A stretch of 48,138 nucleotides of DNA from Escherichia phage PhiR63_2. The notes beneath the pieces are model-generated. The model made no database searches. It worked only from the letters and a program-made list of their open reading frames with translations, and had not been told where the DNA came from. The stretch lies in the sequence record PV340574.1, one strand, 5' to 3'. The stretch's first letter is position 1. Each line of letters opens with the position of its first letter. This document shows, in pieces, positions 39,887 to 42,528 of the stretch. Made by a program: the position numbers and the translations under genes.

Positions 39887-41947
39887 ATGGCAGTACAGAT
39901 TTCAGGCGTGCTGAAAGACGGTGCAGGAAAACCGATACAGAACTGCACCATTCAGCTCAAAGCAAAACGTAACAGCACCACGGTTGTGGTGAACACGGTG
40001 GCCTCAGAAAATCCGGATGAAGCCGGACGTTACAGCATGGATGTCGAGTATGGCCAGTACAGCGTTATCCTGCTGGTTGAAGGTTTTCCGCCTTCACATG
40101 CCGGGGCCATCACCGTGTATGAGGATTCTAAGCCGGGGACATTGAATGATTTTCTGGGCGCTGCAACAGAAGATGATGTTCGTCCGGAGGCACTGTATCG
40201 TTTTGAAAAGATGGTGGAAGAGGTGGCACGCAACGCTGAAGCCGCCTCTCAGAGCGCAGCGGCAGCAAAGAAATCAGAAACAGCAGCGGCATCGTCCAGG
40301 AATGCGGCGAAAACATCAGAGACGAATGCAGGTAACAGCGCGAAAGCGGCAGCTTCTTCAAAAACAGCCGCACAAAACGCAGCAACAGCGGCAGAACGTT
40401 CAGAGACAAATGCCCGTGCGTCAGAAGAAGCCTCCGCAGACAGTGAAGAGGCTTCCCGCCGTAATGCAGAGTCAGCCGCTGAAAATGCCGGAGTCGCCAC
40501 CACAAAAGCGCGGGAGGCCGCAGCAGACGCAACAAAGGCCGGGCAGAAAAAGGATGAGGCTCTGTCGGCAGCGACACGGGCTGAAAAGGCGGCAGACCGC
40601 GCAGAAGTCGCAGCGGAAGTGACTGCAGAGCCCTATGCGAATATAGTGCCGCCGCTGCCTGATGTGTGGATACCGTTTAACGATTCACTGGATATGATTG
40701 CGGGTTTTTCTCCGGGCTATAAAAAAATAGCTATTGGTGACGATGTGGTTCAGGTCGCCAGTGATAAACAGGTTAATTTCAGTCGCGCATCAACGGCAAC
40801 ATATATCAACAAATCTGGCGAACTGAAAACGGCGGAAATTAATGAGCCGCGATTTGAGTGTGATGGCCTGCTTATTGAGGGACAAAGAACGAACTACATG
40901 CTCAATTCGGAAAGTCCAGCCAGCTGGGGAAGATCATCAAACATGGATGTGCCCGAAACCGGGACAGATAGTTTTGGTTTTACTTATGGAAAGTTTGTCT
41001 GCAACGATTCTCTGGTTGGGCAAACTTCGGCTATTAATATGGCATCAATTGCTGCAACAAAGTCAGTTGATGTCTCAGGCGATAACAAGTACGTGACAAC
41101 CTCATGCCGTTTTAAAACAGAACGACAGGTAAGGTTACGTATACGGTTTGATAAGTATGATGGTAGTGCAACAACTTTTCTTGGCGATGCGTACATTGAT
41201 ACGCAAACGCTTGAAATTAATATGACAGGTGGGGCTGCCGGCAGAATTACGGCACGAGTCAGGAAGGATAAGACCACAGGCTGGATTTTTGCAGAGGCAA
41301 CGATTCAGGCAATTGATGGTGAGTTAAAAATAGGCTCTCAGATACAGTATTCTCCTGAGCGGGGTGGGGCAACAGTATCTGGTGACTATATTTATCTTGC
41401 CACCCCACAAGTAGAGAATGGGCCGTGTGTATCATCATTTATTATTTCAGGAGGCAGCGCAACGACAAGAGCCAGTGATTTGGTTAGTATCCCCACCAGA
41501 AATAATCTTTATAAGTTACCATTTACTTTTTTACTTGAGATTCATAAAAACTGGGATATTGCACCAAACGCCGCACCCCGCGTGTGGGATATAGCAGCAG
41601 CCAATACCGGGCAATCAGCAATTGCAGCAATCAACAGAGGTAGTGGTAAGTTATATATGAGTCTGTCAAACCCTTCAGGCTTGTATGTTAATAGCGCAGC
41701 GACAGATGTATTTGCAGAGAAAACCACATTTGGATGTATTGCAAAAGCTGATGGTCACTTTCATGTGGTGACAAATGGTAAAGCGGTTAATGAAGTTTAT
41801 TGTGAATATAATGGTGTGACCGCTGATAAAAATATCCGATTTGGAGGGCAGACGAATACTGGAGAACGACATCTGTTTGGCCATATTCGCAATTTCCGCA
41901 TATGGCATAAAGAATTAAATGACAGGCAATTAAAAGAGGTCGTATGA
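39887..41947 (+). CDS. stf: Side tail fibre protein (Stf-like N-terminus, divergent C-terminal domain)
   Basis: N-terminal ~110 aa match lambda Stf (MAVQISGVLKDGAGKPIQNCTIQLKAKRNSTTVVVNTV...); Ala/Ser/Glu-rich low-complexity shaft; C-terminal region (...NIRFGGQTNTGERHLFGHIRNFRIWHKELNDRQL) looks like a concanavalin/LamG-like jelly-roll (tentative). Confidence 0.8.
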   Translation: MAVQISGVLKDGAGKPIQNCTIQLKAKRNSTTVVVNTVASENPDEAGRYSMDVEYGQYSVILLVEGFPPSHAGAITVYEDSKPGTLNDFLGAATEDDVRPEALYRFEKMVEEVARNAEAASQSAAAAKKSETAAASSRNAAKTSETNAGNSAKAAASSKTAAQNAATAAERSETNARASEEASADSEEASRRNAESAAENAGVATTKAREAAADATKAGQKKDEALSAATRAEKAADRAEVAAEVTAEPYANIVPPLPDVWIPFNDSLDMIAGFSPGYKKIAIGDDVVQVASDKQVNFSRASTATYINKSGELKTAEINEPRFECDGLLIEGQRTNYMLNSESPASWGRSSNMDVPETGTDSFGFTYGKFVCNDSLVGQTSAINMASIAATKSVDVSGDNKYVTTSCRFKTERQVRLRIRFDKYDGSATTFLGDAYIDTQTLEINMTGGAAGRITARVRKDKTTGWIFAEATIQAIDGELKIGSQIQYSPERGGATVSGDYIYLATPQVENGPCVSSFIISGGSATTRASDLVSIPTRNNLYKLPFTFLLEIHKNWDIAPNAAPRVWDIAAANTGQSAIAAINRGSGKLYMSLSNPSGLYVNSAATDVFAEKTTFGCIAKADGHFHVVTNGKAVNEVYCEYNGVTADKNIRFGGQTNTGERHLFGHIRNFRIWHKELNDRQLKEVV

Positions 41948-42222
41948 AAGATTTAACTTTGAAGTTTCATGACAAACTGCAGTTTAAGGCCTTCCTGTCA
42001 TCTCTTGACTGGGAGGAGGATGAAGACCTCCAGAATAAACTGTTAGTCGATGAAATTGGTTTCACCTACACAGAAACAGGGGTAACAGAAGAGGGAGAAC
42101 CTGTCTGTGTCCGGAATGACGGTTATTTTGTCAACATTCGCATTCTTGATGACTTGTTTGATGTTTCTGTATTCTCTGATTATGTCGTGGAGCTGGAAAC
42201 ACCGCTTCGGGAATGGAGCTGA
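41944..42222 (+). CDS. Hypothetical acidic protein (92 aa) translationally coupled to stf
   Basis: ATGA overlap with the stf stop; acidic; occupies the position where a tail-fibre assembly chaperone would be expected, but I see no Tfa similarity. Confidence 0.5.
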   Translation: MKDLTLKFHDKLQFKAFLSSLDWEEDEDLQNKLLVDEIGFTYTETGVTEEGEPVCVRNDGYFVNIRILDDLFDVSVFSDYVVELETPLREWS

Positions 42223-42234
42223 AAGGAGGAAATA

Positions 42235-42528
42235 ATGGATATAAGCCCCTTACTTCATGCGCTTTGTGCTGTGGCTGCGCAGATACTGGTTGGTCTTTTT
42301 ACCGGAAACTGGGCTTACGGAGCGATAGCCGGTTGTACGTTCTTCATTGCGCGTGAACATACCCAGGCAGAATATCGCTGGATTGAAATGTTCGGGCATG
42401 GCAAGCGAATGAATATGCCGTGGTGGGGCGGTTTTGATCCGCGAGCTTGGGATGTGGCAAGCCTGATGGATTTTGCTGTGCCGGTGGTGGCGTGTCTGCT
42501 GGTCTGGCTGTTGGTTAATCGTGGGTGA
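42235..42528 (+). CDS. Hypothetical small membrane protein (97 aa)
   Basis: Strong Shine-Dalgarno (AGGAGGAAATAATG); two hydrophobic segments; no recognised family. Confidence 0.5.
   Translation: MDISPLLHALCAVAAQILVGLFTGNWAYGAIAGCTFFIAREHTQAEYRWIEMFGHGKRMNMPWWGGFDPRAWDVASLMDFAVPVVACLLVWLLVNRG

Follow-up and report, generated by a model that had tools for sequence, protein, structure and literature searches.

An exchangeable fibre tip and its putative 92-residue partner in place of Tfa at the side tail fibre locus of a phage 21-type prophage

The side tail fibre gene stf of Escherichia phage PhiR63_2 (sequence record PV340574.1; its 48,138 nucleotides were analysed as a whole and are called the window here) is followed by two small genes, orf92 and orf97, where lambda carries the tail fibre assembly gene tfa. 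This arrangement raises the question of which of the two, if either, serves the fibre, and of what a fibre with such neighbours would recognise. A preliminary description, drawn from the sequence alone, had placed three open reading frames (ORFs) here, all of which were found, and had suggested that the two small genes could be a novel chaperone or a receptor-blocking exclusion function. The fibre itself is ordinary, a modular Stf with a catalogued domain, and the locus had already been sequenced and annotated. Our answer mostly concerns orf92, for which the most likely role is to assemble the fibre or to accompany its tip as a bound accessory subunit, judging from the way in which it accompanies that tip from phage to phage; orf97 appears to be a gene apart.

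Among the loci that we fetched, 119 of 120 orf92-like ORFs start between -8 and +9 nt after an ORF containing the same tip module as the window Stf. These loci include many close relatives, and the number of independent lineages is about 8 to 10. The pairing persists where identity to the window has fallen to 30% (orf92) and 28% (tip), it extends to Cupriavidus, and in annotated phages it covers seven kinds: lambdoid, P2-like, T1-like (tonn), T5-like (IrisVonRoten, FFH1 and an Aeromonas phage), Dhillonvirus (rolling), Nonagvirus (JenP1) and rV5-like (nomine). There were two exceptions, phage 3W, in which stf is disrupted by an insertion sequence, and the fibre of RcapMu, which has the first tip domain only and an upstream base protein as its partner. 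By this gene order, orf92 appears to be the obligate partner of the tip, and the very strong conservation of the pairing supports the suggestion that it is a fibre-linked accessory protein or chaperone. The two genes do not diversify in the same way. In one lineage, with 68 distinct pairs, orf92 has a mean identity of 89%, and the median for the tip is 20% in its core and 38% in its LamG part. When all pairs are considered, the identity of orf92 tracks best that of the conserved N-terminal segment of the tip (r 0.80), and its dN/dS is 0.3-0.4, a value derived from few substitutions. Translational coupling through ATGA, obligate pairing and this pattern of conservation together therefore point to orf92 acting on, or binding, the constant part of the tip. 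Receptor blocking, the other function that had been proposed for it, is unlikely, at least as a receptor-specific block, because orf92 does not co-vary with the variable specificity region.

The fibre has the three-part organisation that had been described. The ORF is real, and the length of 688 residues first given for it is obtained by counting from an upstream GTG at 39881; the phage 21 annotation takes the ATG, which gives 686. The Stf of the window and that of phage 21 differ at one residue (R349K). The N-terminal anchor is unmistakably lambda-like: the prophage tail fibre N-terminal domain (PF08400) is matched at E 9.8e-69 (230 bits against a cutoff of 26.6), residues 1-94 match a ‘Tail fiber protein’ of the lambda tail structure (PDB 9e7m, E 1.4e-49) and residues 1-158 are 74% identical to lambda orf-401. 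In the Ala/Ser/Glu-rich shaft that follows, A, S, E and T make up 66% of residues 101-250. From there on the relationship ends, as had also been noticed, and a BLASTP comparison of residues 251-686 (436 aa) with lambda orf-314, the gp37-like C-terminal tip, showed no relation (E 1.1). The transition is marked by a junction motif, PLPDVWIPFNDSL, at residue 255, which is kept across loci. The coordinates of all these elements are collected in Table 1.

Table 1. Features of the stf-orf92-orf97 locus and of the fibre genes compared with it
Feature	Coordinates	Strand	Basis
Terminator-like GC hairpin and T run, between J and stf	39847..39866	+	Sequence scan; phage 21 annotation has a terminator at the same place
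stf, side tail fibre gene, 686 aa from ATG	39887..41947	+	ORF; start as in phage 21 annotation
Stf residues 1-133, lambda-type N-terminal anchor domain	39887..40285	+	PF08400
Stf residues ~101-250, Ala/Ser/Glu/Thr-rich shaft	40187..40636	+	Composition; resembles lambda Stf shaft
Stf residues 255-686, exchangeable tip module from conserved junction PLPDVWIPFNDSL	40649..41944	+	Same module on other N-termini
Stf residues 331-531, GTA head-spike-fibre domain, hypervariable core	40877..41479	+	NCBIfam NF048003
Stf residues 562-683, predicted jelly-roll domain of concanavalin/LamG type, with GHIRNFRIWHKEL at its end	41570..41935	+	Laminin_G_3
orf92, acidic 92-aa putative partner of the tip	41944..42222	+	ATG overlaps stf stop as ATGA; PHROG 1361
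orf97, small membrane protein, apparently a separate module	42235..42528	+	Own strong Shine-Dalgarno, preceded by AAAGGAGG; PHROG 1443
Distal fibre genes with shared motif, in T5-like, Nonagvirus and T1-like phages	L214 4789-, L217 3789-, L215 3792-		Motif MxTxTxIPxDITxLKxD

Two domains can be recognised within the tip. The preliminary description had proposed a LamG/concanavalin-type end, which fared well, and had overlooked the domain in the middle, of the type found in the head-spike fibre of RcGTA. This GTA head-spike-fibre domain (NF048003; score 53.4 bits, cutoff 36) is the best pointer to the function of the fibre. A tip-family profile, built from 20 diverse tip modules and searched against PDB, matched the RcGTA head-spike fibre Rcc01080 (6tb9_F3) over residues 44-286 with E 1.6e-43, and baseplate proteins of Pseudomonas phages at about 4e-13. 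The C-terminal domain is supported as concanavalin/LamG-like by profile matches. Laminin_G_3 (PF13385) reaches E 5e-5 to 2e-5 on the window Stf (23.9-25.1 bits, below the cutoff of 27.6), it matches 9 of the 20 diverse homologues at E<=0.01 (the best at 1.1e-10), and the last third of the tip-family profile finds the lectin-like subdomain of botulinum toxin (BoNT) Hc at E 1e-3, with pentraxin as a weak match (0.4). The AF2 model of the tip has a mean pLDDT of 42, was obtained from an alignment of 16 sequences at 61-100% identity and is uninformative as to the fold. Incidentally, the same profile also matches residues 217-450 of the distal tail protein gp17 of Shigella phage Sf11 (PDB 9occ, chain C; E 1e-14). 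This protein has been described as having a ‘large extra appendage of unknown function’ (PMC12724387), which, because of that match, would be a domain of the GTA head-spike-fibre type.

As to the ligand, the head-spike fibre of RcGTA binds capsular polysaccharide (PMC10218006, PMC7296036), the lateral fibres of coliphages of the T1, T5 and Dhillonvirus types, which in many cases have the same tip module, are considered to be O-antigen binders (PMC8594841), and the proximal fibre gp22 of IrisVonRoten has been described as ending in a ‘galectin-like domain’ (PMC11990801). From these analogies we infer that the phage 21 tip probably binds a glycan. The J protein of phage 21 uses LamB (PMC11336670). 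A literature search on the function of phage 21 Stf and on the protein accessions of the locus found nothing.

That the fibre is modular, as had been claimed, is clear from the different N-termini on which the same tip is found: lambda-type (PF08400), P2-type (PF12571), PF03406-type and an unrelated fibre of 704 aa. In one P2-like prophage, the tip together with orf92 and orf97 replaced the end of gene H as well as most of tfa, of which a remnant encoding 74 aa is left. The module also changes internally. Phage Lambda_2E9 (L218, 588-2609, aligned to 39887-41947 of the window) is otherwise near-identical, but residues 351-650 of its Stf are only 20-34% identical to ours, with flanks at 74-100%, orf92 at 93.5% and orf97 at 100%; here the specificity region within the tip has been exchanged in nature. 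Other fibres, of 1013 and 1212 aa (L102, 800-3841; L103, 353-3991), apparently have two tandem tip modules before an orf92-like gene, and in phages 3W (L220, 1739-4521), 1W, 4A7 and Lambda_4C10 the same stf is truncated by an insertion sequence at about residue 643.

The ORF coupled to stf is indeed acidic (pI 4.1; 22 D+E against 8 K+R), and its family is catalogued as of ‘unknown function’ in PHROG. It is a small family, with 81 clusters among 1.84 billion representative proteins in a profile search, and has the pattern M[KR]D..L[KR]F...D.IG...G[YW][HF]VN[LI]R...P.R.W. A check set beforehand was the search for a tfa homologue downstream of the fibre, and it returned none: Caudo_TAP/Tfa (PF02413) was absent from both orf92 and orf97 at E values up to 1, and the alignment of the orf92 profile with lambda Tfa (hhalign) had a probability of 0.05%. 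There was no match of orf92 in Pfam, NCBIfam or PADLOC (the latter with E up to 1) and nothing credible in PDB with either the single sequence or the profile. Its structure, predicted for the protein alone as had been proposed, gave a confident AF2 model (pLDDT 94.5), for which fold searches returned no known chaperone and no Tfa-like neighbour; the only neighbours were generic alpha/beta-sandwich proteins (MecA C-terminal domain, CdiI, ribosomal S10, PII), from which no function can be read. A match to Tap19 at E 0.016 was treated as noise. Homology to the RcGTA spike base Rcc01079 was rejected, the orf92 profile missing the RcGTA chains in PDB and the 88-aa protein upstream of the RcapMu fibre not matching the profile either. 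The literature searched contains no description of this family as a constant companion of the tip. In that role, orf92 would be a fibre accessory protein of a new family.

The explanation that we favour, taken as a whole with somewhat better than even confidence, is that of a chimeric fibre with a glycan-binding tip, for which orf92 would be an assembly or stabilising partner, and with orf97 as a separate matter. Stf combines a lambda-type anchor, by which it would be fixed in the tail tip, with a shaft rich in Ala, Ser and Glu and an exchangeable tip of 430 residues. The latter would bind surface polysaccharide (O-antigen or capsule) in a reversible first contact, and J would perform the irreversible binding. 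Made in step with the fibre by virtue of the ATGA overlap, orf92 would most likely attach to the conserved, non-variable part of the tip and, in this phage, would assemble or stabilise it, doing the job that Tfa does for lambda-type tips. Where another fibre gene directly follows, it may also stay on the virion as a connector to the distal fibre. For its part, orf97 lies outside the fibre cassette; it would be a small inner-membrane protein whose gene moves independently and is placed last in the late operon. What the sequences show directly are the homologies of the domains, the lack of homology to Tfa, the pairing of the genes and the way in which they are conserved; we infer glycan binding, the physical interaction of orf92 with the fibre and its role.

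Several points weigh against this explanation. The link between orf92 and the fibre rests on gene pairing and conservation, and the pairing counts are inflated by related loci, the relevant number being that of the lineages and not 120. The fold assignments of the tip rest on sequence profiles, given the low pLDDT of its model. Lectin-like beta-sandwich domains mostly fold without a dedicated chaperone. The one-domain homologue in RcapMu has no orf92-like gene beside it, and the one-domain fibre of RcGTA, made alone in E. coli, still bound cells (PMC10218006). Finally, orf92 is often found between a proximal and a distal fibre gene, which would suit a structural connector rather than a chaperone.

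This last point leads to the alternative that survives best, which we regard as possible but clearly less probable: orf92 would be a virion-bound structural connector at the fibre tip, on which a distal fibre docks to give a branched fibre, and phage 21 would have lost its distal gene or have it supplied from elsewhere, so that its docking site would be open or go unused. A further fibre gene does follow orf92 directly in IrisVonRoten (gp22-gp23-gp24), JenP1, tonn, FFH1 and two groups of prophages, and these distal fibres share the N-terminal motif MxTxTxIPxDITxLKxD across phage families although their bodies differ. The better conservation of orf92 compared to the variable parts of the fibre would fit as well, and the authors of the BASEL collection have modelled a T-shaped distal fibre attached to the proximal one (PMC11990801), but their published model does not name the 92-aa protein. 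Moreover, orf92 is intact and under purifying selection at loci with no distal fibre gene (phage 21-type loci, the P2-like prophage and the Dhillonvirus ‘rolling’), and the distal-fibre motif is nowhere in the window. We have preferred the assembly or stabilising role here because phage 21-, P2- and Dhillonvirus-type loci keep orf92 without a further fibre gene and because the window lacks the motif. It should be noted that the assembly factor and the virion connector are not mutually exclusive.

The second small gene seems to have a different history. As had been described, orf97 is hydrophobic at both ends (residues 5-38 and 76-95, by composition) and thus looks like a membrane protein; the polar loop between these stretches, AREHTQAEYRWI...MPWWGGFD, hardly varies between E. 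coli, Aeromonas and Comamonas. PHROG lists its family as ‘unknown’, there was no match in Pfam, in PDB (single sequence and profile) or in PADLOC at E up to 1, and a match to RUS1 at E 0.34 was treated as noise. Its dN/dS is 0-0.17. Of the 112 other orf92 loci, 98 have enough downstream sequence and lack it. Homologues are found after an S74-type fibre in Leclercia and after a J-like protein in Comamonas, and one is placed in the Aeromonas chromosome, outside a phage context, with housekeeping genes around it. Because of this absence and of these other contexts, orf97 was treated as a separate mobile gene, apparently independent of this fibre, and the initial idea of the two small genes as one unit does not hold. 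Most of the loci obtained when viral contigs were scanned with orf97 were near-identical ones from E. coli. Two viral contigs of Burkholderiales type (L210, 4001-4288; L211, 4001-4291) have a homologue that is directly flanked by the last tail fibre gene on one side and by the endolysin/spanin genes on the other. These are the only cases with an endolysin as neighbour; in the window, orf97 adjoins stf/orf92 and sitD.

What orf97 does could be considered under two headings, both of them doubtful. The first, which we hold to be rather unlikely, is that orf97, possibly with orf92, is expressed from the prophage as an inner-membrane protein that excludes superinfecting phages or modifies the envelope against them. 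A strong ribosome-binding site of its own, its presence beside several unrelated fibre types, its strong conservation and an invariant polar motif that suggests a conserved host target would all be in keeping with such a function. Nevertheless, none of the databases that were searched (PADLOC, Pfam, PDB) provides a match, and there is no promoter-like site directly upstream, so that nothing indicates expression in the lysogen. Its conservation in different hosts and beside different fibre types speaks against a receptor-specific block, the homologue among the Aeromonas housekeeping genes does not favour exclusion either, and orf92, acidic, cytoplasmic-looking and found in strictly virulent phages too, misfits the protection of a lysogen. 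The second, a lysis-related membrane protein of the holin or antiholin kind stranded at the end of the late operon, is improbable. The size of orf97 is that of a holin and it has two or three hydrophobic segments, and its position in the two Burkholderiales-type contigs would agree with lysis; however, in these contigs it can equally be seen as the gene that comes next to the fibre gene at its end, a hol-like gene is present separately in L210, a holin/endolysin cassette already exists in the window near 17-18 kb, and a near-invariant polar loop across genera, together with a chromosomal copy in Aeromonas, would be unusual for a holin. Least probable of all is that the orf92 family forms a universal hub, a virion protein that caps lectin-tipped proximal fibres (lambdoid, P2-, T1-, T5- and rV5-like) and docks exchangeable MxTxTxIPxDITxLK distal fibres, so that the open site of phage 21-type fibres could capture those of co-resident prophages or co-infecting phages and host range would be changed without recombination.

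The wider context of the locus is that of a known prophage. Positions 39600-42700 are 99.9% identical to Escherichia phage 21 (OL657228) and also to phages ev017 and PhiR57_1, and of 5426 complete E. coli genomes, 450 contain this stretch at >=80% coverage. The annotation of phage 21 calls the three genes ‘side tail fiber’, ‘hypothetical protein’ and ‘putative membrane protein’; after them comes sitDCBA, on the opposite strand. This iron/manganese transporter operon is prophage cargo in the window as well (42620-46069, minus strand), convergent with orf97. In many E. coli genomes, RefSeq splits the intact stf in two, an N-terminal pseudogene marked ‘partial’ and a ‘phage head spike fiber domain-containing protein’. 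In one of them, E. coli ZJ3920 (L002, 3288-5348), the DNA has 99.9% identity to the window and no indel, and the split is therefore an apparent artefact of annotation. Upstream, the interval from J to stf (39620-39886) contains no lom, unlike lambda, and only the terminator-like hairpin of Table 1. The J gene itself (36347-39619/39829) has a run of six C at 39520-39525 where phage 21 has seven. The difference causes a frameshift by which J stops at 1090 aa, instead of 1160, and the end of its receptor-binding region is lost; either the prophage is defective or there is a homopolymer sequencing error. Sequence similar to icd is found at both ends of the window (1-140 and 47940-48138; …GGTGACGCGATCATC / GATCATC…), with three CTTCCCCAAAAC-type repeats near 85-120, as at the phage 21 attachment site. 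From these ends and repeats it follows that the window is a complete lambdoid prophage of the phage 21 type, inserted in icd. A porin gene of 380 aa is located between Q and the lysis genes (15919-17061, minus strand); it is NmpC/OmpD-like according to the annotation of the matching phages and is common to ev017 and PhiR57_1.

Side and lateral fibres decide which surface glycans of E. coli a phage uses, and their parts are swapped in host-range engineering. Beyond the E. coli genomes counted above, the cassette of tip and orf92 occurs in phages related to the models T1, T5, lambda and P2. If orf92 is needed for the assembly of the fibre, or for mounting a second one, chimeric fibres with this tip would fail unless orf92 is carried along, and this requirement would be a practical design rule. 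The family is thus common, testable and relevant to fibre engineering, if not surprising in principle. The locus also contains orf97, a small membrane protein that is strongly conserved, stands apart from the fibre and turns up repeatedly where fibre loci end.

Compared with known systems, the locus resembles most parts of the Stf-Tfa pair of lambda (Ur-lambda; PF08400 and PF02413) up to the tip. The N-terminal anchor is the same (74% identity over residues 1-158), the Ala/Ser-rich shaft is similar, and the position after J and the presence of a small gene directly 3' of the fibre gene are shared. It departs from it in the tip, which is unrelated (E 1.1 against orf-314), in orf92, which is unrelated to Tfa in both sequence and predicted fold, and in the absence of lom between J and stf. 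With T4 gp38/gp57A, P2 G and Mu Tfa, orf92 shares its position directly after the fibre gene and its inheritance with the tip; it has neither sequence nor fold similarity to them and, unlike them, does not co-vary with the region that determines specificity. The RcGTA fibre Rcc01080 (GhsB; NF048003; PDB 6tb9/6tsu) is homologous to the first tip domain of the window. However, it is a single-subunit head decoration of 325 aa, anchored by an N-terminal peptide to a pentameric base (PMC7296036), it has no LamG-like second domain, and its partner is the upstream base protein Rcc01079, which is not orf92-like, an arrangement repeated in RcapMu. The lateral fibre loci of T5-like, T1-like, Dhillonvirus and Nonagvirus phages differ from the window by their other N-terminal attachment regions, by the lack of orf97 in all of them and by the distal fibre gene that many of them, unlike the window, add after the 92-aa gene. 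They nevertheless have the same tip (42-70% identity) and the same 92-aa partner gene (45-57%), in the same order, overlapping or adjacent.

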